Assembly: GCA_965206765.1 (NCBI GenBank)
Contig: OZ242222.1
Span: forward strand, 129,662-193,661
DNA length: 64,000 nt
Direction of reading: 5' to 3'
From: Candidatus Multivorans sp.
Lineage (GTDB): Bacteria; Acidobacteriota; Thermoanaerobaculia; Multivoradales; Multivoraceae
A program made the translations under genes and the position numbers. The notes under the pieces are model-generated. The model ran no database searches and was not told the origin of the DNA. It worked only from the letters and a program-made list of their open reading frames with translations. The first letter of the stretch is position 1; the number at the start of each line of letters is the position of its first letter. This document shows, in pieces, positions 22,271 through 37,116 of this stretch.

Positions 22271-22807
22271 TCAGGAAGTCGCGCCGTCCGCGCCTTCTGC
22301 CATCGCAGCGAGCACGGAGTGGAGGCTGTCGGCGAGGATGGAGTAGAAGCGGATGAAGTTCTCCAGGCGGTCAACGACGACGCTGCCGCCGTCGACGCCG
22401 GGAAGGAGCGCCTGCTTCATCTCCTCGGCCATGGCCTGCCGGTCGCGGAAGCGGTCCGCGACTCGTTGCAGCAGGCCGGGCTGCTCGTTGATCTGGAAGT
22501 AGTCGCGGCGGTCGCCCGGGCGGGTAACCCGTTCGATGACGCCCATGTTCTCCAGCAGGCGGGTGTTCGTGCTGATGCTGCCGCGGCTCACGCGCAGGCG
22601 CTCGGCCAGGCGGTCGAAGCGAAGTGGCTGCGGCGACAGGATGAGCAGGCCGACGAGGCGCCCCGCGATGCGGGGTAGGCGGTCCTCTTCAAGGGCCAGC
22701 CCCATGCCTTCGATGAAGCGCTCCTCGGCGGCACGGAGACCGTACTCGGCAGCGGTGGTGCGTTGGGTGGACTGATCGGGGGCGGGAATCGGTTCGGAGA
22801 GAGTCAT
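22271..22807 (-). CDS. MarR/GbsR-type winged-helix transcriptional regulator
   Basis: LAERLRVSRGSISTNTRLLENMGVIERV is a wHTH recognition helix and wing. It lies just upstream of the RND operon in the same orientation. Confidence 0.6.
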   Translation of the reverse strand: MTLSEPIPAPDQSTQRTTAAEYGLRAAEERFIEGMGLALEEDRLPRIAGRLVGLLILSPQPLRFDRLAERLRVSRGSISTNTRLLENMGVIERVTRPGDRRDYFQINEQPGLLQRVADRFRDRQAMAEEMKQALLPGVDGGSVVVDRLENFIRFYSILADSLHSVLAAMAEGADGATS

Positions 22808-22989
22808 GGGTCAGCGATGATGGAACATCCGGTTTGTTTTGTCAACACTGAACAGTATGAATGCAATGTCGGGCTAGAGTCCCGGGCGGGGCTTCCAACC
22901 TTGTTCCATCCGCGCTACAAGCCGGGGCGTCCGACGGCGCGAGTGGTCCATGCGGGGCTGGTCGGCCGCTCGCCTGCTAGCTTCGAACG

Positions 22990-23388
22990 ATGCCTGAATC
23001 AGCCGGTACGCGTCGTCAGCGCCTGCTGCCCCTCGTGTTGGGGCTGGCGATGCTGGTCTGCGCCCTGTTGCAGCTCAACGACCCGGATCCGCTGGTCTGG
23101 GTGGGCTACTACGCGCTGGTTGCCGTGGCCTGCACGGTGGCCGCCTACCGGCCGTTGCCCGCAGTCCTGTTCTGGATGCTCGGGGCCGCGACCGCGGCGG
23201 GACTGGCCCTGACGCTTCCGGGGTTCGTCGACTGGCTGACCAGACGACCGGCGAGCGACCTCTGGGCGCCCATGTCGGCCGAACGGATGTACATCGAGCA
23301 CAGCCGGGAGTTCCTGGGACTCCTGATCGCTGGGGCCTGCCTCGTCACGGTGCGCCGGCTCTCGGGCCGCGACCGCGCCGGGCGCTGA
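22990..23388 (+). CDS. small hypothetical membrane protein
   Basis: 132 aa with about 4 predicted TM segments. Divergent from the MarR gene across a 180-bp intergenic region. Confidence 0.35.
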   Translation: MPESAGTRRQRLLPLVLGLAMLVCALLQLNDPDPLVWVGYYALVAVACTVAAYRPLPAVLFWMLGAATAAGLALTLPGFVDWLTRRPASDLWAPMSAERMYIEHSREFLGLLIAGACLVTVRRLSGRDRAGR

Positions 23389-23462
23389 TTCGGTCGGGTC
23401 CTCGCGCCGACTCGGCTGCGCTCGCCGGTCATGAGGACGCTGTAGACCGTCGGGGCCGAGTC

Positions 23463-24125
23463 TCAAGGACTACAGCCGCCCGGGAAGGCCGCGTTGTCCA
23501 CAATCGCCGGCGCGGGTGCTCCCGGGCCGTTCACGTACTCGCGCGTCTCGCCGGTGGCGGTGTCCGTCACGGTCAGGGTGAAACCGAGGTCCGAGGCTGA
23601 CGCCCCGTACACCCAGGCGTTCCCGTTGACCGCACAGCCGTCCAGGACCTTGACCAGTAGTTCCCAGTTCGCCGTGTCGAAGAAGCTGAACAGGGCGGTG
23701 TCGTTCGTTCCCGCGCGGACCACCCTGGCCGTATCGGTTCGACCGTCGGCGGCCAGCCACTCGGCGCGCACGGCGTAGCGCGAGTCCTGGAGGCACATGG
23801 TGTGCGCGTCCGGTTCGCAGGTCCCGGCCGGGTTGGCTGCCTCGACCAGGAAGACGCGGGACTCGGTCTTCTCCTCGTCCGTCCGGCTGACGGTAAGGGC
23901 GACTTCGTAGAACCCCGGGTCCGACCAGGCGTGCCTCGTCTCGCGGGACGTGGTCCTCGCCGTGCCGTCGCCGAAGTTCCACGATCTCCGCGTGACGACC
24001 TTCGTCGCGCCGGTCAGAGTGACGGTTTCGCCGGTTTCGGCTCGGCACAGCCCGTCGGTGCATTCGACGCTCAACGCGAAGCGGGCCGTCAGCGGATCCG
24101 GCGGCGGCGGTGGCGGTGCTGGATC
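23463..24125. repeat. shared 3' gene module, about 660 bp (C-terminal domain + PKD + start of poly-Pro linker), copy 1 of 4
   Basis: Near nucleotide-identical to 25707..26370, 27930..28575 and 31332..31975. Only a handful of SNPs, in a mosaic distribution across copies. Confidence 0.85.
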
Positions 24126-25643
24126 CGGCAGCGGCGGCGGATTCGGGTTCGGCGCAGGCGGCGGCGGCGGCGGTGACGGCGGCGGTGGATCCGTCGTCGT
24201 CGTCGGCGGAGGTGGCGGTGGAGGTGGCGGTGGAGGCGGTGGAGGTGGCGGTGGAGGCGGAGGCGGCGGCGGCGGGTGCGGTCCCTCGAAACCGCCGTCC
24301 TCCGGCCCGGCCCCGGTGAGAGCGGTGCACATTCGCGATCGGAAGCCCCAGATATGGGCACTCATGAACGTCATCTCGCCACGACCGGAACCGCGCCGCA
24401 ATCGCTCCTCAGACTGCCTGGTGCCCGATAGAACGAAGAACTCCTTGTACGCTGCCAGTAATTCGTCCTCGGCGGTCGCGGTCCCGGGCGGATACACCAA
24501 TAGGTCTTTTCGTCTTTGGTCCCTCAGGAGTTGGCCCCCCTGGATTGCCGAACCACCGAGGATGTCGTTCCGCGAACTCGCGTAGTAGCGCTTCACGGTG
24601 GCGGAACCTAGCCAGGCATCATGGTAGATCAGGAACCACACAGCGTCGAGGATGCTCACACCACCGGCAGTGAAGGGGTCTGAGAACTCCGTGTCCATGT
24701 CGGCTCCGTGGAGGAGTTCGTCGGTGCTGTCCAGGATCCGGATGTCCTTGAAGTCGTCGTCCAGCCTGTCTTCCATGTCGCCGAGGAAACCGTGGTCGGC
24801 CAAAGCCCACAAGGAGTCCCAGTCGTCCGGCGCGTTGCAGACCGCCGACTCGACGAACTGATCGTAGTCGTCGCTGTCTTTGAGCTGCTGGAAAAGAACG
24901 GTGCTGTGCCTCTGCAGGAGCGTGTGGGCGAAGAACCTCTCAGCTTGGTGAGCAACCCGATGGGGGGGGCTGCCGAATCTGACCGATTGGTGGGGCGGAT
25001 CCCTAACATACTCCGTATTAGTGCCGCCCAGGTTGAGCGCCGCTATGCGAGGATCCGCTGTGTGCTCTATGCCTTTGAGTCCACTGTTGTATACGTTCGC
25101 ATCTACTTCTTGCAGCGTGTTCCACAGCTCGGTGCCGGACTCTGTGCGGTCGTTTGCGGTCGCCGGTGTCGCCGAATCGTCCCCCCATATTGGGGCGTTC
25201 AATGGGCCATGACAACTGGCGCACTCCGTTGGGTGGGTAATCTCCACATCGTCTCCCGAGAAGTCGATAACGCCGGCCTCCCACCGCCCTTCCTTGGGTA
25301 TCGGCTCGAGGAACTCGACCTGATCGTTGTTCGGATTGTCGGTATGGGTTCCGAAGGCCACGATGAACCGGGAGTCGTAGCCGTAGGCGATGAATCGCGG
25401 ATGCTCGGGCGAGACGAAGTCGGCCACCGGGCTCTCCGATTGGTAGAGAGCGCTCCAGAAGAGCTTGTGCTTTTCCGGCAGAGCGTCGAGGAACTCGTTG
25501 ACGCTCGATATTTCGTGTTCCGAGATGAAGGCGGCGACGATTTCTTCGGTCATCGTTTCCGGCAGGACGGCGTATTTGTCGAAGGCGGTCACTTGACCGG
25601 TTGCGACAACAAGAAGCGTGCAACATCCGAGTACTTTCAGCAT
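23463..25643 (-). CDS. secreted modular protein P1: CxxCH-containing N-terminal domain + unknown central domain + poly-Pro linker + PKD + Cys-containing C-terminal domain
   Basis: Signal peptide MLKVLGCCTLLVVATGQVTA. Heme-binding-type motif HPTECASCHGP. About 45 consecutive Pro/Thr. SWNFGDGT...YEVALTV is a PKD motif. The final 115 aa have 4 conserved Cys. RBS AAGGA lies 5 nt upstream of the ATG. Confidence 0.7.
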   Translation of the reverse strand: MLKVLGCCTLLVVATGQVTAFDKYAVLPETMTEEIVAAFISEHEISSVNEFLDALPEKHKLFWSALYQSESPVADFVSPEHPRFIAYGYDSRFIVAFGTHTDNPNNDQVEFLEPIPKEGRWEAGVIDFSGDDVEITHPTECASCHGPLNAPIWGDDSATPATANDRTESGTELWNTLQEVDANVYNSGLKGIEHTADPRIAALNLGGTNTEYVRDPPHQSVRFGSPPHRVAHQAERFFAHTLLQRHSTVLFQQLKDSDDYDQFVESAVCNAPDDWDSLWALADHGFLGDMEDRLDDDFKDIRILDSTDELLHGADMDTEFSDPFTAGGVSILDAVWFLIYHDAWLGSATVKRYYASSRNDILGGSAIQGGQLLRDQRRKDLLVYPPGTATAEDELLAAYKEFFVLSGTRQSEERLRRGSGRGEMTFMSAHIWGFRSRMCTALTGAGPEDGGFEGPHPPPPPPPPPPPPPPPPPPPPPPPPTTTTDPPPPSPPPPPPAPNPNPPPLPDPAPPPPPPDPLTARFALSVECTDGLCRAETGETVTLTGATKVVTRRSWNFGDGTARTTSRETRHAWSDPGFYEVALTVSRTDEEKTESRVFLVEAANPAGTCEPDAHTMCLQDSRYAVRAEWLAADGRTDTARVVRAGTNDTALFSFFDTANWELLVKVLDGCAVNGNAWVYGASASDLGFTLTVTDTATGETREYVNGPGAPAPAIVDNAAFPGGCSP
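24100..24300. repeat. GGN/GGC simple-sequence repeat encoding the poly-proline linker (coding-strand CCN)
   Basis: ggcggcggtggaggtggcggtgg... runs are also present at 26340-26500, 28560-28680 and 31960-32100. Tract lengths differ between copies. Confidence 0.8.
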
Positions 25644-25706
25644 TCCTTGGGTAATGTCCTTTCTTCAACTGAGAGAGAGCCGGGTCGGCACGTCAAAGCT
25701 CCAGGC
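25644..25706 (-). promoter_or_regulatory. 63-bp intergenic spacer carrying the RBS (AAGGA) for P1, identical to spacer 27867..27929
   Basis: Both spacers read ttcaactgagagagagccgggtcggcacgtcaaagctccaggcctaacggcgacagccg. On the gene strand this gives TTGACG...N17...CTCAGT, then GTTGAAGAAAGGACATTACCCAAGGAATG. Confidence 0.4.
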
Positions 25707-27866
25707 CTAACGGCGACAGCCGCCCGGGAAGGCCGCGTTGTCCACAATCGCCGGCGCGGGTGCTCCCGGGCCGTGCACGTACTCGCGCGTCTCGCCGGTG
25801 GCGGTGTCCGTCACGGTCAGGGTGAAACCGAGGTCCGAGGCTGACGCCCCGTACACCCAGGTCTTCCCGTTGACCGCACAGCCGTCCAGGACCTTGACCA
25901 GGAACTCCCAGTTCGCCGTGTCGAAGAAGCTGAACAGGGCGGTGTCGTTCGTTCCCGCGCGGACCACCCTGGCCGTATCGGTTCGACCGTCGGCGGCCAG
26001 CCACTCGGCGCGCACGGCGTAGCGCGAGTCCTGGAGGCACATGGTGTGCGCGTCCGGTTCGCAGGTCCCGGCCGGGTTGGCTGCCTCGACCAGGAAGACG
26101 CGGGACTCGGTCTTCTCCTCGTCCGTCCGGCTGACGGTAAGGGCGACTTCGTAGAACCCCGGGTCCGACCAGGCGTGCCTCGTCTCGCGGGACGTGGTCC
26201 TCGCCGTGCCGTCGCCGAAGTTCCACGATCTCCGCGTGACGACCTTCGTCGCGCCGGTCAGAGTGACGGTTTCGCCGGTTTCGGCTCGGCACAGCCCGTC
26301 GGTGCATTCGACGCTCAACGCGAAGCGGGCCGTCAGCGGATCCGGCGGCGGCGGTGGTGGTGCTGGATCCGGCAGCGGCGGCGGATTCGGGTTCGGCGCA
26401 GGCGGCGGCGGCGGCGGTGACGGCGGCGGTGGATCCGTCGTCGTCGTCGGCGGAGGTGGCGGTGGAGGTGGCGGTGGAGGCGGAGGCGGCGGCGGCGGGT
26501 GCGGTCCCTCGAAACCGCCGTCCTCCGGCCCGGCCCCGGTGAGAGCGGTGCACATTCGCGATCGGAAGCCCCAGATATGGGCACTCATGAACGTCATCTC
26601 GCCACGACCGGAACCGCGCCGCAATCGCTCCTCAGACTGCCTGGCGCCCGATAGAACGAAGAACTCCTTGTACGCTGCCAGTAATTCGTCCTCGGCGGTC
26701 GCGGTCCCGGGCGGATACACCAATAGGTCTTTTCGTCTTTGGTCCCTCAGGAGTTGGCCCCCCTGGATTGCCGAACCACCGAGGATGTCGTTCCGCGAAC
26801 TCGCGTAGTAGCGCTTCACGGTGGCGGAACCTAGCCAGGCATCATGGTAGATCAGGAACCACACAGCGTCGAGGATGCTCACACCACCGGCAGTGAAGGG
26901 GTCTGAGAACTCCGTGTCCATGTCGGCTCCGTGGAGGAGTTCGTCGGTGCTGTCCAGGATCCGGATGTCCTTGAAGTCGTCGTCCAGCCTGTCTTCCATG
27001 TCGCCGAGGAAACCGTGGTCGGCCAAAGCCCACAAGGAGTCCCAGTCGTCCGGCGCGTTGCAGACCGCCGACTCGACGAACTGATCGTAGTCGTCGCTGT
27101 CTTTGAGCTGCTGGAAAAGAACGGTGCTGTGCCTCTGCAGGAGCGTGTGGGCGAAGAACGTCTCAGCTTTGTGAGCAACCCGATGGGGGGGACTGCCGAA
27201 TCTGACCGATTGGTGGGGCGGATCCCAAGGATAGACCGTATTAACGCCGCCCAGGTTGAGCGCCGCTATGCGAGGATCCGCTGTGTGCGGTAGGTCGTGG
27301 AGTCCATGGTTATTTATGTTCGTATCTACGTCTTGAAGCACGTCCCACAGCTCGGCGCCGGACTCTGTGCGGTCGTTTGCGGTCGCCGGTTTCGCCGAAT
27401 CGTCCCCCCATAGTGGGGCGTTCAATGGGCCATGACAACTGGCGCACTCCGTTGGGTGGGTAATCTCCGCATCGTCTCCCGAGAAGTCGATAACGCCGGC
27501 CTCCCACCGCCCTTCCTTGGGTATCGGCTCGAGGAACTCGACCTGATCGTTGTTCGGATTGTCGGCATGGGTTCCCCAGGCCACGATGAACCGGGAGTCG
27601 TAGCCGTAGGCGATGAATCGCGGATGCTCGGGCGAGACGAAGTCGGCCACCGGGCTCTCCGATTGGTAGAGAGCGCTCCAGAAGAGCTTGTGCTTTTCCG
27701 GCAGAGCGTCGAGGAACTCGCTGACGCTCGATATTTCGTGTTCCGAGATGAAGGCGGCGACGATTTCTTCGGTCATCGTTTCCGGCAGGACGGCGTATTT
27801 GTCGAAGGCGGTCACTTGACCGGTTGCGACAACAAGAAGCGTGCAACATCCGAGTACTTTCAGCAT
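25707..27866 (-). CDS. secreted modular protein P2, near-identical tandem duplicate of P1 with a shorter Pro-linker and variable patches
   Basis: Same architecture as P1. The nucleotide sequence is almost identical except for localized substitution clusters and a 21-nt shorter GGN repeat. Confidence 0.7.
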   Translation of the reverse strand: MLKVLGCCTLLVVATGQVTAFDKYAVLPETMTEEIVAAFISEHEISSVSEFLDALPEKHKLFWSALYQSESPVADFVSPEHPRFIAYGYDSRFIVAWGTHADNPNNDQVEFLEPIPKEGRWEAGVIDFSGDDAEITHPTECASCHGPLNAPLWGDDSAKPATANDRTESGAELWDVLQDVDTNINNHGLHDLPHTADPRIAALNLGGVNTVYPWDPPHQSVRFGSPPHRVAHKAETFFAHTLLQRHSTVLFQQLKDSDDYDQFVESAVCNAPDDWDSLWALADHGFLGDMEDRLDDDFKDIRILDSTDELLHGADMDTEFSDPFTAGGVSILDAVWFLIYHDAWLGSATVKRYYASSRNDILGGSAIQGGQLLRDQRRKDLLVYPPGTATAEDELLAAYKEFFVLSGARQSEERLRRGSGRGEMTFMSAHIWGFRSRMCTALTGAGPEDGGFEGPHPPPPPPPPPPPPPPPPPTTTTDPPPPSPPPPPPAPNPNPPPLPDPAPPPPPPDPLTARFALSVECTDGLCRAETGETVTLTGATKVVTRRSWNFGDGTARTTSRETRHAWSDPGFYEVALTVSRTDEEKTESRVFLVEAANPAGTCEPDAHTMCLQDSRYAVRAEWLAADGRTDTARVVRAGTNDTALFSFFDTANWEFLVKVLDGCAVNGKTWVYGASASDLGFTLTVTDTATGETREYVHGPGAPAPAIVDNAAFPGGCRR

Positions 27867-27929
27867 TCCTTGGGTAATGTCCTTTCTTCAACTGAGAGAG
27901 AGCCGGGTCGGCACGTCAAAGCTCCAGGC

Positions 27930-29927
27930 CTAACGGCGACAGCCGCCCGGGAAGGCCGCGCTGTCCACAATCGCCGGCGCGGGTGCTCCCGGGCCGTGCA
28001 CGTACTCGCGCGTCTCGCCGGTGGCGGTGTCCGTCACGGTCAGGGTGAAACCGAGGTCCGAGGCTGACGCCCCGTACACCCAGGCGTTCCCGTTGACCGC
28101 ACAGCCGTCCAGGACCTTGACCAGTAGTTCCCAGTTCGCCGTGTCGAAGAAGCTGAACAGGGCGGTGTCGTTCGTTCCCGCGCGGACCACCCTGGCCGTA
28201 TCGGTTCGACCGTCGGCGGCCAGCCACTCGGCGCGCACGGCGTAGCGCGAGTCCTGGAGGCACATGGTGTGCGCGTCCGGTTCGCAGGTCCCGGCCGGGT
28301 TGGCTGCCTCGACCAGGAAGACGCGGGACTCGGTCTTCTCCTCGTCCGTCCGGCTGACGGTCAGGGTGACTTCGTAGAACCCCGGGTCCGACCAGGCGTG
28401 CCTGGTCTCGCGGGACGTGGTCCTCGCCGTGCCGTCGCCGAAGTTCCACGATCTTCGCGTGACGACCTTCGTCGCGCCGGTCAGAGTGACGGTTTCGCCG
28501 GTTTCGGCTCGGCACAGCCCGTCGGTGCATTCGACGCTCAACGCGAAGCGGGCCGTCAGCGGATCCGGCGGCGGCGGTGGTGGATCCGGCGGCGGCGGTG
28601 GTGGCGGTGGTGGATCCGACTCCGGCGGCGGCGGTGGTGGCGGTGGCGGCGGCGGCGGCGGCGGCGGCGGCTTCGCGTCCTCATCCACGTTGATCGTGAC
28701 CGTAGTCTCAGCTTCACTCCATAGCTTGTCTCGCGCCGTTACCGTGACGACGTATTCGCCTTGTCCGAAGAGACTCTGAGCGGCGTAGAGTTGTCCGGAT
28801 TCTCTGTCGATCTTGAACAAACTCGAGTCTTCACCGCCGAGCCGATACAGGATCTCGTCGTCGTCGTCGGGATCGTTCGCTCTCACGGGAGGACCGACGG
28901 CGTCGCCGGGCGCCAGTCGCTCAGTGACTGTCCTTCGCGTATCGGTTCCACTCGGGAACGCCGGAGCACTGTTGCTGGGAGCGGCGTACCAGGCTGCCGC
29001 TAGTGGCACAGTTTCCTTCAGGGTGGCCGCGGCATCGGCCACACCGGCTCTGCCGACGGGGACCGTGTAGTCCACCCGGAACCGGCGCACGGTCCCGGTG
29101 CCCGGGTGCGAGAACGTCTCCGCCAAGACCTCCCAGTAGGCCATGATCGTGCCGTATCGGAACTGGATTCCGTCGTGGTCGTAGTCTGCCCAGTAGCCGG
29201 CGCCCTCAGGGCTGTAGGAGTTCAATGAGTGTTCTGAAGGTTCATCTCTAAGTCCCAGGACGTACCCGATCTCGCGGGCAAACCACGGCCACCTGGCGTC
29301 GTGGTGCAACGTGGCGAAGGCTTGGCCTTTCTGCTGCTCCGACGTAACGCGCGATGTCCACTGGTAGGAACGCGCGCCGACGTCGTGACTGCCAGTCCTC
29401 TTGTAGATCACGACTACGATGTCGGCGCCGTGTGCGGACCTCGTAGCCTCCGGGAGGGTGTTCTTGGTCCTCTCAAGGACGACACCGGCAGTCGTGCTCC
29501 CAAGTACGTCGGCATGGCTGGCCGTTTCCGGCGCCGGCAGCAATCCGACCGGCTTGACTATCGCATTGACTTTGCTATTGGATAGTGCTGTGTTGATCCT
29601 TTTGATCCATTCGAGGATCGTCGGTTCCAAGGACGGTCTTGGTAGGCCGTCGGAGTCGGCTATGGCTGTCGTATAGAGAAACAGCATGCCGACCTCGGTC
29701 GGATCGTCCGTGGTCGTGCCGTCGGTGCGAAACTGTGCGCCTGCCGCGGTGGAAAGCAGGCTGGCTGCGGCGGCAAGGCCCAGCGCGAATTTCGTCAGAC
29801 CGGCATGTCTTGGTCCGGCCTTGGGGGGGGCCACGCTCCCGCGTGTGTCATGCAGGAGTCGACTTCGCCGAAGCCGTGGGCGCGATCTCGATCCAGTTCT
29901 TGCCAAACCGGAACAAGCTTCCACCAA
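27930..29927 (-). CDS. secreted modular protein P3: degenerate metzincin-like domain (His ligands lost) + cadherin-like domain + poly-Pro linker + PKD + C-terminal domain
   Basis: FAREIGYVLGLRD sits where P5 has HEIGHVLGLRH, with the Met-turn GTIMAY retained. Cadherin-like ILYRLGGEDSSLFKIDRESGQL...YVVTVTARD. The shared 3' module is identical to P1 and P2. Confidence 0.65.
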   Translation of the reverse strand: MVEACSGLARTGSRSRPRLRRSRLLHDTRGSVAPPKAGPRHAGLTKFALGLAAAASLLSTAAGAQFRTDGTTTDDPTEVGMLFLYTTAIADSDGLPRPSLEPTILEWIKRINTALSNSKVNAIVKPVGLLPAPETASHADVLGSTTAGVVLERTKNTLPEATRSAHGADIVVVIYKRTGSHDVGARSYQWTSRVTSEQQKGQAFATLHHDARWPWFAREIGYVLGLRDEPSEHSLNSYSPEGAGYWADYDHDGIQFRYGTIMAYWEVLAETFSHPGTGTVRRFRVDYTVPVGRAGVADAAATLKETVPLAAAWYAAPSNSAPAFPSGTDTRRTVTERLAPGDAVGPPVRANDPDDDDEILYRLGGEDSSLFKIDRESGQLYAAQSLFGQGEYVVTVTARDKLWSEAETTVTINVDEDAKPPPPPPPPPPPPPPPPESDPPPPPPPPPDPPPPPPDPLTARFALSVECTDGLCRAETGETVTLTGATKVVTRRSWNFGDGTARTTSRETRHAWSDPGFYEVTLTVSRTDEEKTESRVFLVEAANPAGTCEPDAHTMCLQDSRYAVRAEWLAADGRTDTARVVRAGTNDTALFSFFDTANWELLVKVLDGCAVNGNAWVYGASASDLGFTLTVTDTATGETREYVHGPGAPAPAIVDSAAFPGGCRR

Positions 29928-29977
29928 TACCGGCCGCGTTGTCGCCTACAAAACTGCGGGGAACCCCAAGAAAGCGG

Positions 29978-31273
29978 CTAATCCGGCGCCGCGGCGCTCA
30001 TCATGAAGCCCATCATCATCTCGTCCGTCGACGGCTGTCCGAAACGGACCGTGCGCTCCGAGTTGAACCCGTAGCGCTGCGCCTTCCCCGGCGAGTTGTC
30101 GTACCAGGCCGTGTACTCGACCCGCGTGCCCTTGGGGATCCGCTTCAACTGGTCGTAGTAGTAGACCGTCTGCCACGAGAAGTCGAACTGCGGCACGTCC
30201 AGCAGCACTTCGGAGGCGCCGTCGGGGTAGAAGGCCTCGAAGCGGGCCGCCTTGCCGCGCATGTGCATGTGCGGCATCAGGGCGATGATGTCCGTGTCCT
30301 TCTGGGCCACGGTGGAGTAGGGGCCGACCTGGTGGTTGCCGTTGTTCGGCGGAATCGCGAAGGTGAAGTTCATGATCGGGCGGAGTCCGGAGCCCAGCGA
30401 CCGGGTCACCGGCTTGTCGGCGAAGACGAAGCCGATCGACGACTGGTCCCACACGCCGGTGCCGTCGCCGGCTTCCTTGTGGTAGTGGATGTCGAAGGTC
30501 ACCCGCGAACCCTTCCTGAGCAGGAAGCCGTAGCCCTCCGGGTAGCGGTTCGCGTCGCTGCCGGAGGAAACGCCGCCCATGTAGCTGCCGGCGTTCTCCG
30601 GCGACGGGGCGATCTGATCCTGGTTCGGAAACTCCGGCGGCGCCGGCAGTTCGCCGTTCTCGTCCGGTTCCAGGAGGTGGAGGTTGAAGTGGTGGATGAT
30701 GTCGCTGTCCGGCTTGCACTGGAAGGCGACGATCCAGCGATCCTCCGGCAGATCCTCCTCGGTGAGGACGTAGGAGAAGGCGGCGTAGAGGTCGTCGACC
30801 GTGTCCTCGACGAAGTAGGGCTCGGGCATCGTCACCACCAGGTTGGGCTCACCGACGACCCAGCCGCCCGTGCTGGGGAACTCGCGCGGGGGCGGAGCGT
30901 CGGCGGCGTTGCCGGCGGCGGCGGCGGTCGCGGCCCAGCTCACCAGGGTCTCGATCTCGGCCGGGCTGAGCACCCGCTCGTTGGCGAAGGTCCCGTCGTG
31001 TTGGGGATGCGCGTCCCAGGGCGGCATCTCGCGGGCGGCCACGGTGCGGGCGATCGACTTGGCCCACGGCCGCACGTCGGCGTAGCTGGTCAGCGCCATC
31101 GGCGCGCGCATGCCGCCGTAGTTCGCACCCGCCGGCCGGTGGCAGTCCTGGCAGTGCGTCTGGAGCACCGGCAGCACATCGGCGTAGAAGGTCGGCGCGT
31201 CGCGGTCGGCGGCGGCGGCCGGCGCGGCGGCGAGTGCCAGAAGGAGGGCGGCGGGGAGGGCTGAACTCTTCAT
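29978..31273 (-). CDS. secreted PSCyt1-type cytochrome c domain fused to a copper type II (PHM/DBH-like) monooxygenase domain (P4)
   Basis: Signal peptide MKSSALPAALLLALAAAPAAAA. FYADVLPVLQTHCQDCHRPAG is PSCyt1-like CxxCH. IIHHFNLH plus FDIHYH form CuH-like His clusters. MPHMHMRGK plus EMMMGFMMS form a CuM-like HxH...M arrangement. Confidence 0.6.
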   Translation of the reverse strand: MKSSALPAALLLALAAAPAAAADRDAPTFYADVLPVLQTHCQDCHRPAGANYGGMRAPMALTSYADVRPWAKSIARTVAAREMPPWDAHPQHDGTFANERVLSPAEIETLVSWAATAAAAGNAADAPPPREFPSTGGWVVGEPNLVVTMPEPYFVEDTVDDLYAAFSYVLTEEDLPEDRWIVAFQCKPDSDIIHHFNLHLLEPDENGELPAPPEFPNQDQIAPSPENAGSYMGGVSSGSDANRYPEGYGFLLRKGSRVTFDIHYHKEAGDGTGVWDQSSIGFVFADKPVTRSLGSGLRPIMNFTFAIPPNNGNHQVGPYSTVAQKDTDIIALMPHMHMRGKAARFEAFYPDGASEVLLDVPQFDFSWQTVYYYDQLKRIPKGTRVEYTAWYDNSPGKAQRYGFNSERTVRFGQPSTDEMMMGFMMSAAAPD

Positions 31274-31331
31274 GGCGTGAGAGTACCAGCGGGCGTCTCG
31301 GAACGTTGTGACGCTGGACCTTCAGGGCAAC

Positions 31332-33416
31332 TCAAGGTCTACATGCGCCCGGGAAGGCCGTGTTGTCCACAATCGCCGGCGCGGGTGCTCCCGGGCCGTT
31401 CACGTACTCGCGCGTCTCGCCGGTGGCGGTGTCCGTCACGGTCAGGGTGAGACCGAGGTCCGAGGCTGACGCCCCGTACACCCAGGTCTTCCCGTTGACC
31501 GCACAGCCGTCCAGGACCTTGACCAGGAACTCCCAGTTCGCCGTGTCGAAGAAGCTGAACAGGGCGGTGTCGTTCGTTCCCGCGCGGACCACCCTGGCCG
31601 TATCGGTTCGACCGTCGGCGGCCAGCCACTCGGCGCGCACGGCGTAGCGCGAGTCCTGGAGGCACATGGTGTGCGCGTCCGGTTCGCAGGTCCCGGCCGG
31701 GTTGGCTGCCTCGACCAGGAAGACGCGGGACTCGGTCTTCTCCTCGTCCGTCCGGCTCACGGTCAGGGCGACTTCGTAGAACCCCGGGTCCGACCAGGCG
31801 TGCCTCGTCTCGCGGGACGTGGTCCTCGCCGTGCCGTCGCCGAAGTTCCACGATCTCCGCGTGACGACCTTCGTCGCGCCGGTCAGAGTGACGGTTTCGC
31901 CGGTTTCGGCTCGGCACAGCCCGTCGGTGCATTCGACGCTCAACGCGAAGCGGGCCGTCAGCGGATCCGGCGGCGGCGGTGGTGGTGCTGGATCCGGCAG
32001 CGGCGGCGGATTCGGGTTCGGCGGTGACGGCGGCGGCGGTGACGGCGGCGGCGGTGACGGCGGCGGTGACGGCGGCGGCGGTGACGGCGGGGGATCTTCG
32101 TTCACATCCTCCACGTCGATTGTCACGCTGGTTTCCGCTTCCGCAAATAGCTTGTCCCTTACCACGACGGTGAGGTGGTAAAGCGCCCGATCTTCGTAGT
32201 CGAGGGGCTGCCGGGTCAGAATCTGGCCGTCCTCCCTTCGCAACTTGAAGTACTGGGCGTCGTCGCCCTCGAGGCGGTAGTCGATCTCCTGGTTCTCCGG
32301 GTCCTCGACCGCGATTGGGGCGCCCACCTCGCTCTCCGGCGGCAGGTTCTCCTTGACACTTCGTCTTGTCCCGGCGCCGTCTGTCAACACTGGCGCGCTG
32401 TTGGCGCGGGTCCCGTACCAGGCCGCTGCCAGCGGCGCCGTGAGATTGAGGGCCTTCGCGGCGTTTGCCACTCCGTCTTCACCCATCGGAACCCGGTACT
32501 CGACTCCGTCGACTCGCACAGGCCGGTCGGCCAGGTGCGAGAAAGGTACGTTCTGCCCCAATCTGAAGGAACCGGCCATGATCGTCGAGTAGCGGAACTT
32601 GAGTCCGTCCTGGTCGTATTGTCCGCCGTACCCGGCCCCTTCCGGGTGATACGAGTGGCGGAGGCTGTCTGCTTGGCTATGTCTGAGGCCCAGGACATGG
32701 CCGATCTCATGAGCCACCGTTCCCCACCAGTGGAAATGCTCCACCGCCAAGACCGCATAGCCCTTCATCTGGTCTGACGTCCTGCCGGCCCTCCAGGGGT
32801 AGGCAAGACCGCATTTGCTGCCACAGGACACATTGGAGTCGTAAATGACGGCTACGATGTCTGCGCCATGTTCCGCCCTCATCGTCCAGAAGAGTGGAGT
32901 GGACTTTGCCGTGTCCATGACGCTGTGCGCGGACGCGCAGCCACACCTATCGACATTGCTGGCCTCTTCCGGCGCCTGTCTCATGCCGACCAGCCTGACG
33001 GTCGCATTCACCTTGCTCACCGAGAAGGCTTCGTTCGTCTTCGCGAGCCAGTCGCGGACGCGTCCTTGAAGCCTCAGACTCGGTGTGGCGTTGTCCTGTA
33101 CGCCCTTTGTGTACAGAAACAGGATGTCGAGTTCGGAAGGATCGTCCGTTGCCGTTTCGCTCGGCAACTGGACAACGCTCGGTCCCGGTTCGGTGGGAAT
33201 CTCCAGGAGTTTGCAGCGAAACTGCGCGCCTGCCGCGGTGGAAAACAGGCTGGCTGCGGCGGCAAGGCCCAGCACGAACTTCGCCAGACCGGCAGGTCTT
33301 GGTTCGGCCCTGGGGGAGCGCTCACTCCCGCGTGCGTCATGCAGGAGTCGACTTCGCCGAAGCCGTGGGCGCGATCTCGATCCGGTTTTTCTCAAACCGG
33401 AACAAGCTTCCACCAA
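31332..33416 (-). CDS. secreted modular protein P5: intact metzincin-like Zn-protease domain + cadherin-like domain + poly-Pro/Ser linker + PKD + C-terminal domain
   Basis: VAHEIGHVLGLRH is an HExxHxxGxxH Zn-binding motif with Met-turn YSTIMAG. Cadherin-like IDYRLEGDDAQYFKLRREDGQIL...YHLTVVVRD. The shared 3' module matches the other copies. Confidence 0.7.
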   Translation of the reverse strand: MVEACSGLRKTGSRSRPRLRRSRLLHDARGSERSPRAEPRPAGLAKFVLGLAAAASLFSTAAGAQFRCKLLEIPTEPGPSVVQLPSETATDDPSELDILFLYTKGVQDNATPSLRLQGRVRDWLAKTNEAFSVSKVNATVRLVGMRQAPEEASNVDRCGCASAHSVMDTAKSTPLFWTMRAEHGADIVAVIYDSNVSCGSKCGLAYPWRAGRTSDQMKGYAVLAVEHFHWWGTVAHEIGHVLGLRHSQADSLRHSYHPEGAGYGGQYDQDGLKFRYSTIMAGSFRLGQNVPFSHLADRPVRVDGVEYRVPMGEDGVANAAKALNLTAPLAAAWYGTRANSAPVLTDGAGTRRSVKENLPPESEVGAPIAVEDPENQEIDYRLEGDDAQYFKLRREDGQILTRQPLDYEDRALYHLTVVVRDKLFAEAETSVTIDVEDVNEDPPPSPPPPSPPPSPPPPSPPPPSPPNPNPPPLPDPAPPPPPPDPLTARFALSVECTDGLCRAETGETVTLTGATKVVTRRSWNFGDGTARTTSRETRHAWSDPGFYEVALTVSRTDEEKTESRVFLVEAANPAGTCEPDAHTMCLQDSRYAVRAEWLAADGRTDTARVVRAGTNDTALFSFFDTANWEFLVKVLDGCAVNGKTWVYGASASDLGLTLTVTDTATGETREYVNGPGAPAPAIVDNTAFPGACRP

Positions 33417-33480
33417 TACCGGCCGCGTTGTCGCCTACAAAACTGCTGGGATGGACCGCAAGAAACGGCTACTCCGGCGC
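33417..33480 (-). pseudogene. relic of the 3' end of a P4-like monooxygenase gene
   Basis: The minus strand reads ...MMGFMMSAAAPE*, versus ...MMMGFMMSAAAPD* at the real P4 terminus at 29978. The nucleotide string ccggcgccgcggcgctcatcatgaagcccatcat is shared with 29960-30010. Confidence 0.55.
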
Positions 33481-33573
33481 CGCGGCGCTCATCATGAAGC
33501 CCATCATGGCGGGCGGGCACGGCGCGGCGCGCCGGATGCCGGCGGGGACGCCGGCGCACTCCGTCGTTGCGCC

Positions 33574-36500
33574 TCAGGCGGTCGCCAACTGCTGCTCGGG
33601 GTGCATCTCGTCGACATCGACGCCGACGATCTTCGACACGCCCTGTTCCTCCATCGTGACGCCGTAGAGCGTGCTCGCGGCCTGCATCGTCAGCTTGTTG
33701 TGCGTGATGATGAGGAACTGGGTGACGGCCGACATCCGCTTCAGCATGTCGACGAAGCGCAGGATGTTTGCGTCGTCGAGCGGTGCGTCGACTTCGTCGA
33801 GGATGCAGAAGGGCGAAGGCTTGGTCTCGAACAGGGCGAACAGCAGAGCGATCGCGGCCAGCGCTTTCTCGCCGCCCGACAGCAGCATGATGTTCTGCGC
33901 CCGCTTTCCCGGCGGCCGTGCCGTGATCTCGATGCCGCAGTCCAGCGGGTCGTCCTCGTCCATCAGGCGCATCTCCGCTTCGCCGCCGCGGAACAGCTCC
34001 GTGAAGATGCGGCCGAAGCTCTCGTTGACCTCGCGGAAGGTTGCCACGAAGCGCTCGGATGAGGTCTTGTCGATGTCGCGGATCGTGCGCTTCAGACTCT
34101 CGATCGAGTGGGTGACGTCGGCCCGCTGCCCGGTCAGGAACTCGTGACGCTCCTGGTGCTCGTCGTACTCGTCGGCGGCGAGAACGTTGACCGGCCCCAT
34201 CCGCTCCAGCAGGGCCCGCCGGCGTCCCAGCTCCCCGGTCATCGCTTTCAGGTCGGGCGCCTCGTCGGCCCCGGCGGCCCGCAACTCCTGGCCAACCAGC
34301 TCGTCGCCGAACTCCTGGAGGTAGTCCTGGCCCAGGTGCTCCGACTCCTGCCGCAGGCCGGCCTGACGCACGCGCAGTTCCTCGATCCGGCCGCGCACTT
34401 CGTCGCGGCGGGCGTCGAGTTCCCGGAGTTGCGCCTCGAGCGTCCGGCCTTGTTCCCTCTGGTCGTCGAGGACGCGTTGGGCGCGGGCGGCTTCGTCCTG
34501 GGCATTCGTGCGCTCGGCGAGCGCCTCGTCCAGCTCGCGCCGAGCGTTCGCCGCGGCTGCTTCATGCTCGCTGATCCGCCCACGCAGTTGGTCCGTTTCG
34601 GCGGCCCAGGCCGCGTCGGCCTCGCGCAGCGAGGCGATCTGGCCTTCGACGCGCTCCCGCTCGCTGCGTTCCGAGGACGCGCGTTCTTCGATCAGGTCGA
34701 GCTGCCCCTGGAGCCCGGCGCCCGCGGTGATCCGCTCTTCGCGCTGCTTGCGGGCGCGCTCGACCGCGGCGCTCGCCTCGTCGGCCGCTTGTTCCAGGGT
34801 CGCAAGCCGGGTCTCGCAGTCCGCGACGTCCGTCTCGACCTTGGACCGCCTTGCCCCTCTCGTCTCGATCTGGCTCGCCAGCTCCTGATGCTCCGACTGC
34901 GTCGCGCTGTACTCGTGACGTAGAGCGCCGCGTCGCTCGCCGATGTCCTGGAGACGGGCCTTGGCCACAGCCAGTTGCTGGCGTAGTTCCGCGGCTGCGC
35001 GCTCCAGACGCTGGCCTTCGGTCGCGGCCTGACCCACACGCTCGCCGGCTGCTTCGATCTCCCTGGCGAGGTCCGACCGCCGTTGTTCCAGCTCGGCGAT
35101 GGAGCGTTCCAGGTCGTCCATCTCGCGCTGGCGGCCCAGGGCGCCCAGCGCCGCCTGTTCGCCGCGTACCGTGACGCGGCCGGCTTCGATCCAGAGCCGG
35201 TCCCGGCATAGGAAGGCAACGCCTGGATGGTCCGGCGCCAAACGCTCGGCATCCTCCGGGCTCTCGACCAGGTAGGCGGGAGGAAGGGCGCCGCGAGTTT
35301 CCTCGGGCAGTCCGAGCGCCGTGGCGAGGTCGCCGACGATTGCCGGATCTTCGACCGAAGGCAACAGCTTCGCGCCGTTGCCGGAGCGCAGCAAGGTGGC
35401 CTGGAAGTCGGAACCGCCGATGGAGCGGGCGATGGCCAGGGCGTCTTCGTCTCCGGGTGTCATGACGGCGTTGCGCAGCGGGCCGAGGAACAGATCGAGG
35501 CTGTGCTCCCAGCCCTCGGGAACCTGAACTTCGTCGCCCAGGAAGCGCGGCGCCGGAAGGCCCAGTTCGAGCAGAGCCTTGCGAATCTCGCTCCTTTCTT
35601 CGGCGTCGCGCTGGCCCAGTTCACCGAGCACGGCAGCCCTCTTCTGCGCCTCGACCAGTTCCTCGCGACAGGCCTCGAGTTCGACTTGGGCCTCCTGTCG
35701 CCGGTTTCGGTTCGCTTCGAGATCGGCCGCCACCCGTTGGGCGGTCCTGGTCTCGGCGGTCAGGGCGACATCCAGGGATTCGATCTTGGTCCGGACCGCC
35801 TCGACTTCGACATCGATGGCCTTGAGCGCATCCCGGTTGCGGTCGAGGATCTCCTCGGCCCGGTCGCGGCGGTCGACTGCCTTCTCGCTGCCGATGCGCT
35901 CGGCGATCAGTGTTCCGCGCAGCTCGCCCTGCCGCGCCCGGCAGGTGGCGAGCTCGTCGAGCAGCAGGCGCTGCCGCTTGCGGGCTTCCGCGATCGCGGC
36001 GTCGGCGTTGCCGATGCGCCGGCGGTCTTCCTGCACGTCGGCCAGGGCCTGCTCGCGCTTGGATTGGAGCATCCGGCGCCGGCCGAGGAGAGTGGCGAGC
36101 CGTTCTTCGGCCGCCGCGAGGTCGCGCCGCCGCCGTGCGGCGCTCACGCCGCCGGATTCGAGCCGTTCGGCGATCTCCGCGAGGGTGGTGCGGGCGCCCT
36201 TGATCAGTTCCTGGCGCCCCTCGATCACCGCGAGCAGCTTCGCCTGGTGCTCGTGGGAGCGCACGGCGTCCTCGGTGCGGGCGTCGATCACCTGCCGGCA
36301 GGCGGCGAGCTGCGCATTGGCGCGCGCGAGTTCGGCCAGCAGATCGGCTTCGCGGTCCGTGTCCTGCTTCAGGGTCGAGGCCAGGTCGTCCAGGTCTGCC
36401 TGGAGCCGAACCCAGCGCTCCTTGAGCACGGCGTCGAGCAGCTCGCGGTAGGCCTGCCGGCGTTCCCCGTAGCGGCGGGCGGCGTTCGCCTGCCGCTTCA

Positions 36501-37116
36501 GGGAGCGCAACTGGCGCTCCACCTCGGCGACGATGTCGTCCAGACGAAGCAGGTCGGCGGTGGCGTCCTCGAGCTTCAGTGCGGCGAGCCGCCTGCGGTT
36601 CTTGTAGCGGGTGATGCCTGCGGCCTCTTCGATCAGCTTGCGACGGTCCTGCGGTCTGCCGGACAGGATCATTCCGATCCGCCCCTGCTCGATCACGGAG
36701 TAGGCGCGGATACCCAGACCCGTGTCCATCAGGATGTCGCGGATGTCCTTGAGCCGGACGACCCGGTCGTTCAACCGGTACTGGCCCTCGCCGCCGCGGA
36801 AGATGCGGCGCCCGATCGTGATCCGGCCGTCCTCGGCCCGCTCGATGCTGCCGTCGGTGAGGAAGGAGAGGCTGACCTCGGCCATTCCCAGCGGCTTGCG
36901 CTGGTGGGTGCCGTTGAAGATGACCTCCTCCATGGAACTGCCGCGCAGCGACTTGGCGCTCTGCTCGCCCAGCACCCAGGTGATCGCCTCGGCCAAGTTG
37001 CTCTTGCCGCAGCCGTTCGGCCCGACGATCGCCGTGATTCCGGGCGCGAAGTGACTCGTCACCGGCTCGACGAAGGTCTTGAAGCCGCTAACCTCCAGGC
37101 ATTCCAGTTTGAGCAT
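33574..37116 (-). CDS. smc: chromosome segregation protein SMC
   Basis: 1180 aa. N-terminal Walker A GPNGCGKSN. Long coiled coils with a central hinge. C-terminal LSGGEKALAAIALLFA signature, DEVDAPLD Walker B and a conserved C-terminal tail. Confidence 0.9.
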   Translation of the reverse strand: MLKLECLEVSGFKTFVEPVTSHFAPGITAIVGPNGCGKSNLAEAITWVLGEQSAKSLRGSSMEEVIFNGTHQRKPLGMAEVSLSFLTDGSIERAEDGRITIGRRIFRGGEGQYRLNDRVVRLKDIRDILMDTGLGIRAYSVIEQGRIGMILSGRPQDRRKLIEEAAGITRYKNRRRLAALKLEDATADLLRLDDIVAEVERQLRSLKRQANAARRYGERRQAYRELLDAVLKERWVRLQADLDDLASTLKQDTDREADLLAELARANAQLAACRQVIDARTEDAVRSHEHQAKLLAVIEGRQELIKGARTTLAEIAERLESGGVSAARRRRDLAAAEERLATLLGRRRMLQSKREQALADVQEDRRRIGNADAAIAEARKRQRLLLDELATCRARQGELRGTLIAERIGSEKAVDRRDRAEEILDRNRDALKAIDVEVEAVRTKIESLDVALTAETRTAQRVAADLEANRNRRQEAQVELEACREELVEAQKRAAVLGELGQRDAEERSEIRKALLELGLPAPRFLGDEVQVPEGWEHSLDLFLGPLRNAVMTPGDEDALAIARSIGGSDFQATLLRSGNGAKLLPSVEDPAIVGDLATALGLPEETRGALPPAYLVESPEDAERLAPDHPGVAFLCRDRLWIEAGRVTVRGEQAALGALGRQREMDDLERSIAELEQRRSDLAREIEAAGERVGQAATEGQRLERAAAELRQQLAVAKARLQDIGERRGALRHEYSATQSEHQELASQIETRGARRSKVETDVADCETRLATLEQAADEASAAVERARKQREERITAGAGLQGQLDLIEERASSERSERERVEGQIASLREADAAWAAETDQLRGRISEHEAAAANARRELDEALAERTNAQDEAARAQRVLDDQREQGRTLEAQLRELDARRDEVRGRIEELRVRQAGLRQESEHLGQDYLQEFGDELVGQELRAAGADEAPDLKAMTGELGRRRALLERMGPVNVLAADEYDEHQERHEFLTGQRADVTHSIESLKRTIRDIDKTSSERFVATFREVNESFGRIFTELFRGGEAEMRLMDEDDPLDCGIEITARPPGKRAQNIMLLSGGEKALAAIALLFALFETKPSPFCILDEVDAPLDDANILRFVDMLKRMSAVTQFLIITHNKLTMQAASTLYGVTMEEQGVSKIVGVDVDEMHPEQQLATA

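Follow-up and report, generated by a model that had tools for sequence, protein, structure and literature searches.

We report here on P4, a gene in a window of 64,000 nucleotides (nt) from Candidatus Multivorans sp. (contig OZ242222.1, positions 129,662 to 193,661), and on the genes that surround it; coordinates below are those of this window unless another locus is named. Judged by its sequence and its predicted structure, P4 is a c-type cytochrome fused to a module with the PHM/DBH fold, in which both mononuclear copper sites have been kept. It is a resident gene of its locus, and the locus is a hotspot for the insertion and rearrangement of modular genes in Ca. Multivorans: the metzincin/cadherin/PKD genes that now flank P4 are recent, strain-specific insertions on both sides of it and not its partners. 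We consider it probable that this account holds as a whole, with an exported haem c-PHM/DBH-fold protein, the chemistry proposed for it below, strain-specific modular insertions and a copied relic of the 3' end of P4. The parts of P4 are as follows.

29978..31273, minus strand: P4, 431 amino acids (aa) with an ATG start, from the open reading frame (ORF) and its translation
31208..31273, minus strand: Sec-type signal peptide, residues 1-22 (MKSSALPAALLLALAAAPAAAA|D), read off the sequence, with the n-h-c layout and AxA site inferred
30899..31198, minus strand: mono-haem class-I-like cytochrome c domain, residues ~26-125, with invariant C41, C44, H45 and M83
31139-31153, minus strand: CxxCH codons (C41-x-x-C44-H45)
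31025-31027, minus strand: codon of the probable axial Met83 (MPPW), an invariant residue
30389..30856, minus strand: PHM-like N-terminal beta-sandwich with the equivalent of the CuH site, from Foldseek, hhalign and conservation
30689-30694 and 30485-30487, minus strand: codons of H194/H195 and of H263, the CuH ligands
29981..30388, minus strand: PHM-like C-terminal beta-sandwich with the equivalent of the CuM site, from Pfam, hhalign and conservation
30263-30271 and 30017-30019, minus strand: codons of H335-x-H337 and of M419, the CuM ligands

A first-pass annotation, made from the sequence alone, had read a cytochrome c motif together with CuH (HH...H) and CuM (HxH...M) clusters in P4, and this reading holds. 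The translation contains FYADVLPVLQTHCQDCH, IIHHFNLH, FDIHYH, PHMHMRG and DEMMMGF, its cytochrome c segment reads FYADVLPVLQTHC41QDC44H45, and C41, C44, H45, M83, H194, H195, H263, H335, H337 and M419 are invariant in an alignment of 43 close homologues (54-85% identity). The orthologue in Ca. Multivorans OZ253534.1 (locus L009) is 97% identical to the P4 of the window. Conservation extends to a set of 52 distant relatives with a mean column identity of 15%: they retain 21 invariant columns, ten of which are those of CxxCH, the MPPW Met, HH, the HY His, HxH and the EM Met. The signal peptide implies that P4 is exported for haem attachment and, taken with CxxCH, that haem is attached covalently in the periplasm. 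The earlier description of P4 as 'secreted' was right about the Sec-type signal peptide, but the protein is better read as Sec-exported and periplasmic.

The label 'Planctomycete-type' (PSCyt1) given to the cytochrome motif is not confirmed, as PF07635 has no match to P4 at E<=10. All the cytochrome models of Pfam that respond to P4 do so under threshold (Cytochrom_C, E=0.0075; Haem_bd, 0.024; Cytochrome_CBB3, PF13442, 0.044), with PF00034 scoring 18.0 bits where the cut-off is 21.3. Cytochrome_CBB3 is matched by 22 of the 52 distant relatives, with a best E of 4e-9, and the AlphaFold2 (AF2) model of P4 forms this domain from three helices, H29-40, H64-79 and H104-115.

That model, built from the 43-sequence alignment, has a mean predicted local distance difference test (pLDDT) of 83.3 and a predicted template modelling score (pTM) of 0.80. 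Behind the three-helix N-terminal domain lie two beta-sandwiches, the two-domain (double jelly-roll) core of PHM/DBH (clan CL0612). When the model was compared with the PDB using Foldseek, the top 31 matches were all human DBH 4zel or rat PHM (E from 2e-12 to 4e-8, probability 1.00, ~300 aligned columns, target template modelling score ~0.6), followed by generic jelly-roll proteins at E>=6e-5. We also aligned the sequence of rat PHM, checked against PDB chain 1sdw_A, with the 43-sequence P4 profile using hhalign. At the CuH site, H194/H195 of P4 pair with H107/H108 of PHM and H263 with H172; at the CuM site, H335/H337 pair with H242/H244 and E418-M419 with E313-M314. Both ligand clusters are thus present in P4, in this pairing and as invariant residues, and the pairing agrees with the Foldseek fold match and the conservation pattern. 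The first-pass view of P4 as a PHM/DBH-like heme-copper protein is borne out by the model, the fold matches and the six aligned ligands.

Three results weigh against assigning P4 to this fold. It stays under the curated Pfam thresholds for every relevant model: PF01082 (Cu2_monooxygen) has no match even at E<=10, and PF03712 (Cu2_monoox_C) reaches 15.0 bits and E=0.017 where the gathering cut-off is 23. Sequence searches of the PDB, by phmmer with P4 and by hmmsearch with the 43-sequence profile, gave no PHM/DBH match. The hhalign score itself is weak, with E~0.002 and a probability of 14-15% on a single-sequence template. A search with NCBIfam gave nothing useful. The under-threshold alignment to PF03712 does cover the expected region, taking P4 residues 306-425 to model positions 17-134, and the model is passed at Pfam E<=1e-3 by 22 of the 52 distant relatives (best E 5e-8), PF01082 by five of the 52 (best E 2.7e-7); one P4 homologue, P0014, has a precomputed PF03712 match. 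These distant relatives bridge P4 to the curated family. Pfam on P4 alone is insufficient, so the case for the fold rests on AlphaFold with Foldseek, on hhalign and on the relatives that pass Pfam. The Pfam search by which the first-pass annotation had proposed to check P4, taken alone, would have led to a wrong rejection of the PHM/DBH reading.

PHM (peptidylglycine alpha-hydroxylating monooxygenase) and DBH (dopamine beta-hydroxylase) are non-coupled binuclear copper monooxygenases. Their two-beta-sandwich fold (PHM, PDB 1PHM/1SDW; DBH, PDB 4ZEL; PF01082 + PF03712) is common to P4, with Foldseek E-values down to 2e-12; the six copper ligands are equivalent and the local motifs HH, HY, HxHxxG and DEM match, although sequence identity is 15-18% and P4 lies under the Pfam thresholds. 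The differences concern what surrounds the core. P4 is bacterial, would be periplasmic and carries an N-terminal c-type haem domain, whereas the animal enzymes use soluble ascorbate, and it has neither the DOMON domain of DBH nor the PAL domain of PAM.

The bacterial family to which P4 belongs, as its short form, is very large and uncharacterised. When 1.84 billion representatives were searched with the profile, 16,855 clusters formed at 50% identity reached E<=1e-3 and 2,965 of them E<=1e-30, and in many of the matches the module begins near residue 200. The N-terminal extension of these long forms is an AhpC-TSA/Redoxin thioredoxin-fold domain, matched by Redoxin in 40 and by AhpC-TSA in 39 of the 52 distant relatives (best E 1e-38) and mostly with a single Cys, not CxxC. 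Behind it stand the cytochrome c and the PHM-like core, with the same invariant ligands as in P4, which clearly belongs to this AhpC/TSA(Redoxin)-cytochrome c-Cu2_monoox superfamily; the ~200-aa thioredoxin-fold domain is missing from P4 and its orthologues. Further variation, seen in some members, consists of added EF-hand, TPR or CBM domains or of a duplication of the entire module. In databases the proteins are named 'hypothetical protein', 'mono/diheme cytochrome c family protein' or, for one member, 'peroxiredoxin', and genome matches come from Acidobacteriota (several classes), Sumerlaeota, Nitrospirales, Hydrogenedentota, Rhodothermaeota, Gammaproteobacteria and Gemmatimonas. The most fitting description of the family is that of PHM/DBH copper monooxygenases in a variant with a tethered haem c.

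The same genomes also encode a paralogue of P4 (~45% identity). In six loci of the paralogue group (L044, L059 and four more), the next gene, on the same strand, encodes a 450-aa thioredoxin + ankyrin-repeat protein, which echoes the thioredoxin-fold fusion of the long forms. When we clustered the neighbours in 87 P4-family loci, this thioredoxin-ankyrin gene beside the paralogues was the only exception to a lack of partners conserved across identity groups; the clustering is crude, as high G+C content produces spurious ORFs. We searched the literature for bacterial cytochrome c-PHM fusions and for Ca. Multivorans and came upon no paper on either, which is not proof of absence.

Animal neuroendocrine biology knows PHM, DBH and TBM as copper enzymes that depend on ascorbate. 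In the first two, both copper sites receive their electrons from ascorbate, and O2 binds at CuM (His2Met), where the substrate is hydroxylated. The fused haem of P4 suggests a reductant other than ascorbate, and by analogy a tethered haem c would be the obvious substitute where ascorbate is absent. In the mechanism that we propose, haem c would take electrons from a periplasmic electron-transfer chain and then reduce CuH (His194, His195, His263), the role played by ascorbate in animal PHM/DBH. CuM (His335, His337, Met419) would activate O2 or H2O2 and hydroxylate a C-H bond of the substrate, and the thioredoxin-fold partner that recurs in the family may act as a source or regulator of reducing equivalents or peroxide. 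Other enzymes pair a cytochrome with copper: copper nitrite reductase has a cytochrome c-tethered form, the three-domain NirK of Ralstonia pickettii, and the cytochrome domain of cellobiose dehydrogenase reduces the copper of LPMO. In both, a cytochrome feeds single electrons to an extracytoplasmic catalytic copper, as proposed for P4. The likeness is functional, without homology: the copper folds, a cupredoxin trimer in NirK and an immunoglobulin-like fold in LPMO, are unrelated to that of P4, and so is the chemistry.

The >16,000 clusters of the family, P4 included, could be genuine O2-/H2O2-activating monooxygenases of the PHM/DBH type, fed by a built-in haem c (with a thioredoxin-fold domain in the long forms) and working without ascorbate; we take this to be a real possibility, short of a probable one. 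Monooxygenase chemistry with the haem as electron donor is something we infer by analogy, and because no family member has been characterised, the same goes for catalysis, the oxidant and the direction of electron flow, which tells against the proposal. So do the hints of peroxide chemistry that could lie in the single-Cys domain of the long forms, as in peroxiredoxins, and in the one member named 'peroxiredoxin'. These hints lend themselves to another explanation, which we regard as rather unlikely: P4 would have the PHM fold and the metal ligands, yet be no substrate-hydroxylating monooxygenase. It could then act as an oxidase in the periplasm, as an enzyme that handles peroxide or is of the peroxygenase type, or as a protein for electron transfer or the handling of copper, and the haem could accept electrons. 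The AhpC/TSA peroxiredoxin-like domain fused in most long forms and its mostly single Cys fit such a role, as do the 'peroxiredoxin' name, which comes from one source, and the thioredoxin gene adjoining the P4 paralogues. The neighbour clustering yielded no conserved gene that points to a substrate, and the literature no characterised member of the family. Set against this is the complete His3 / His2Met set, invariant across very divergent members. In PHM, DBH and TBM this set supports O2 activation and C-H hydroxylation, and its invariance argues that the two-site chemistry is retained.

Should the family consist of such monooxygenases, it would be a periplasmic bacterial counterpart, coupled to the electron-transport chain, of a class of enzymes seen as essentially eukaryotic, and might be the evolutionary root of the eukaryotic PHM/DBH-type enzymes. 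PHM has been described as widespread in eukaryotes, in contrast to bacterial PNGase F, and a paper on structural evolution places it in the PHM/PNGase F clan as that clan's eukaryotic branch (PMC8812541). With both copper sites and a haem c, the bacterial family would be a natural system for ascorbate-free, long-range electron delivery to CuH/CuM, a pool of unexplored periplasmic C-H oxidation chemistry and a test of where the eukaryotic enzymes came from. The P4 family matters more than the P4 locus.

The locus is an ordinary but clear example of how modular genes of an adhesin/protease-like kind, inserted at strain level around a gene of the housekeeping type, have left short relics of the resident genes. 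In reading order, all on the minus strand, it comprises smc, a relic of the P4 tail, P5, P4, P3, P2 and P1; a TMEM220-like gene comes next after P1 on the opposite strand. The five genes from P5 to P1 are co-directional with spacers of 50-63 nt, and G+C is 63-70% across the region.

33574..37116, minus strand: smc (Pfam SMC_N, 6e-66), which adjoins P4 upstream in 21 related loci
33469..33507, minus strand: relic of the P4 tail, 39 nt, the last 12 codons and stop of P4 (MMGFMMSAAAPE*)
33215..33507, minus strand: ~290-nt tract, 92-96% identical to 29727-30016
31332..33416, minus strand: P5, a 694-aa ORF with a putative start codon
27930..29927, minus strand: P3, metzincin motif degenerate
25707..27866, minus strand: P2, modular gene
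23463..25643, minus strand: P1, modular gene
23465-24170, 25709-26414, 27932-28559 and 31334-32039, minus strand: shared 3' cassettes of the four modular genes
31306..33522, minus strand: insertion 1 relative to L009, with the relic and P5 between a 15-nt filler and a 36-nt 3' flank, in place of 19 nt of the ancestral smc-P4 spacer
~23365..29981, minus strand: insertion 2 relative to L009, holding P3, P2 and P1, in place of ~150 nt between the P4 stop and the TMEM220-like gene

The insertions become evident from a comparison with P4 loci elsewhere. In 21 related loci from Candidatus Multivorans/Thermoanaerobaculia genomes, the end of smc lies <=200 nt upstream of P4, both genes share a strand, and there is no modular gene. 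The closest of these strains, L009 (OZ253534.1), whose flanks are 96-97% identical at the nt level, is empty at the insertion sites to either side of P4, with no P5 and no P3-P1. Its alignment to the window by blastn runs over 40109-33523, then 31305-29982, then from 23364 onwards, and the break-points of insertion 1 place L009 9952 at window 33523 and L009 9969 at window 31305. Modules of the metzincin, P1-type or C-terminal kinds were found by tblastn within 10 kb of P4 in two of 87 P4-family loci, L010 and L016, lying 9.6 kb from P4 in the latter. More distant P4 homologues have unrelated neighbours and no modular pairing, and homologues of the P1/P2 N-terminal domain sit in other housekeeping contexts with no P4 beside them. 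The functional coupling of P4 with the modular proteins that the first-pass annotation had suggested is therefore not supported by the relatives: in the one locus of the 87 where modules flank P4, which is L010, they lie on the opposite strand.

Locus L010 (OZ242167.1, Ca. Multivorans) carries different modular genes from those of the window. A 6.3-kb insertion between smc and P4 (L010 3737-10000) holds reprolysin and fn3 genes on the opposite strand, and a gene with LRR, Calx-beta, PKD and the window-type C-terminal domain (L010 11339-15427) is convergent on P4. The 5' end of the L010 P4, in the signal-peptide region, has been replaced. L010 also contains a mosaic relic of smc, 258 aa assembled from three smc fragments (residues 48-185, 969-1031 and 1113-1180) at 98% nt identity.

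The relic of the P4 3' end, which the first-pass annotation had already recognised, is real. An exact match of 35 nt (33473-33507 = 29982-30016), for which 100 shuffles give an expectation of 0, links it to the P4 3' end, and the relic translates as MMGFMMSAAAPE*. The first-pass annotation had allowed that the likeness might be confined to a low-complexity segment shorter than ~20 nt; the match is not low-complexity and runs well beyond that limit. Its extent and setting need amending: the coding part spans 33469-33507, so that the end first assigned to it, 33480, cuts through the relic, and in gene orientation it lies upstream of the P5 ORF start, not downstream. The similar sequence noted upstream of P3 does exist but is simply the true 3' end of P4. 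Identity is 96% over 45 nt, and beyond a 2-nt indel the match goes on for 236 nt at 92% (33216-33451 vs 29727-29962), so that the ~290-nt tract comprises the P4 tail, the intergenic region, and the 5' leader and signal-peptide region common to P5 and P3. The upstream region of P1 and P2 is different and does not hold the relic.

The tails themselves give the relative date of the copy. The P4 of L009 ends in ...CCGGAGAACTAGCCGTAACC, that of the window in ...CCGGATTAGCCGCTTTCTTG and the relic in ...CCGGAGTAGCCGTTTCTTG. The relic retains the ancestral GAG (Glu), as in the ...PEN* of L009; the relic and the window P4 tail both lack the AAC codon and both have the new downstream sequence, and from these two shared features it follows that the copy postdates the joining of a modular gene to the P4 stop. 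P5 and P3 form a mosaic: the 290-nt 5' tract is 92-96% identical, the central 1.2 kb ~55-60% (protein 48%) and the 3' 640 nt 97-100%, with sliding identity falling to ~55-60% below ~33215. Since the relic tract is at 92-96% where the centres are at ~55-60%, the relic is far younger than the divergence of P5 and P3, and P5 is not a simple old duplicate carrying an old relic. The relic was carried along in a recombination or conversion tract, or else came in with another strain's divergent allele. In the sequence of events we envisage, the segment placed upstream of P4 would have been copied from a template that already held the junction of P4 tail and modular gene, leaving the relic behind. One way would be for [P4 + modular gene] to be duplicated, in tandem or by unequal crossover, with the body of the additional P4 lost afterwards; another would be direct copying of the junction segment alone. 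Under either route the repeated unit is recent and strain-specific, not ancestral, and offers no evidence of function.

The first-pass annotation had drawn another history from the relic, namely that an ancestral unit [P4 + modular gene] was duplicated in tandem, that one P4 was later deleted and that the two genes are functionally coupled. This we now think very unlikely. In its favour are the relic itself, the co-directional and tightly spaced run of five genes, the smc duplicate of L010, whose decay by internal deletions demonstrates that duplication and deletion happen at this locus, and the metzincin-type modular genes adjoining P4 in L010. The last of these, the presence of such genes beside P4 in a second strain, counts against our account of the neighbours as mere insertions, as does the possibility that P5-P4-P3-P2-P1 may be co-transcribed in the window strain, given their shared direction and 50-63 nt spacers; a local redox link of P4 with P1/P2, whose N-terminal domains contain an invariant CxxCH, is likewise conceivable. 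The pairing is absent, however, from the 21 close relatives, from the nearest strain L009, from the more distant P4 contexts and from the surroundings of the P1/P2-domain homologues, and the L010 modular genes are on the strand opposite to P4. The P5/P3 centres (~55-60%), set beside a non-coding relic at 96%, make the relic much younger than the split, and all three zinc ligands of P3 are gone. A tandem-duplication step alone is possible; the ancestral unit and the functional coupling fail.

The relic may also have arisen without any second full P4 ever having existed, if only the P4 tail, the spacer and a modular gene (its 5' end or the whole) were copied upstream, by ectopic gene conversion or template switching between modular paralogues with a tract running 39 nt into P4; we regard this as quite possible, while giving it somewhat less than even standing. 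The P5/P3 mosaic has the sharp boundaries (~33507 and ~33215) that such copying would leave, and the C-terminal module, homogenised to 95-100% among the four genes, shows active conversion. The left junction has no convincing 5' end of a second P4: a source for the 15-nt filler (33508-33522), sought in the P4 5' end and the ancestral spacer, gave only chance-level matches, and its six other matches in the window at <=2 edits are likewise at chance level. Conversion normally needs homology on two sides, though, and the left end lies in non-homologous sequence, while the smc mosaic relic of L010 shows that the route of full duplication followed by deletions operates at the locus. The data do not discriminate between junction copying and duplication with deletion.

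Turning to the modular genes themselves, P5 encodes, in order, an M12B/reprolysin-like metzincin, a cadherin domain, a poly-Pro linker, a PKD domain and a 123-aa C-terminal domain (Pfam Reprolysin_4 4e-13, Cadherin 1e-12, PKD 9e-11). Like bacterial metzincins of the reprolysin/M12B type, it matches Reprolysin_4/5/3, Cadherin and PKD above Pfam thresholds and keeps the zinc motif HExxHxxGxxH intact (VAHEIGHVLGLRH). P3, whose Reprolysin_4 match has E=9e-4, reads AREIGYVLGLRD at this motif, which is lost; across residues ~235-250 it has FAREIGYVLGLRD where P5 has VAHEIGHVLGLRH, and the three zinc-ligand His are gone. This loss makes P3 probably a catalytically dead paralogue. P5 and P3 differ from known metzincins in their lineage-restricted 123-aa C-terminal domain, which has no Pfam match, and P3 also in its missing zinc ligands. 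The 123-aa domain has 67 homologues, apparently confined to metagenome-assembled genomes of Thermoanaerobaculia type, and most of them are called as ORFs of 77-214 aa. A metagenome scan for relatives of P5 confirmed none.

The 3' cassette of the four modular genes consists of the poly-Pro linker, PKD and the 123-aa four-Cys domain, with 95-100% protein identity among the four, whereas their N-terminal parts are unrelated or ~48% identical. The shared cassette suggests gene conversion or cassette exchange. The N-terminal domain of P1 and P2 (residues ~1-456) has no Pfam match and four homologues among 5.8 billion proteins. Across 26-43% identity it keeps HPTxC-x-x-CH-G..N.P.WG (C141, C144, H145) invariant, a sign that the domain, which is joined to PKD or Calx-beta modules, may bind haem c and would be a very rare one of its kind. 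An AF2 model of P1 from a 6-sequence alignment (pLDDT 49) was too poor for a fold search.

An Rfam scan of the window gave no match, including in the conserved 5' tract common to P5 and P3, and a promoter/terminator scan of 29700-33700 yielded nothing informative. At the other end of the inserted genes, the stretch 22300-23420, with the TMEM220-like and MarR-family genes, matches L009 at only ~65-85% identity, against 93-99% for the smc, P4 and RND genes on its flanks; the right edge of the inserted island may reach through this replaced TMEM220/MarR segment. The smc-P4 spacer varies from ~25 to ~140 nt among relatives. In L013 (JAPOVF010000026.1, ~9860-9930) it contains four tandem copies of GGGTGCGCCGGCCTG ahead of a GC-rich hairpin, and such repeats, or the variation of the spacer, may be linked to fragility of the site. 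In L001/L002 (ERZ25072258, a 3.7 Mb contig), from a more distant relative, a P4 orthologue of 87% identity lies between the MarR-family and TMEM220-like genes, convergent with smc, an arrangement from which it follows that P4 has changed both position and orientation within the locus.

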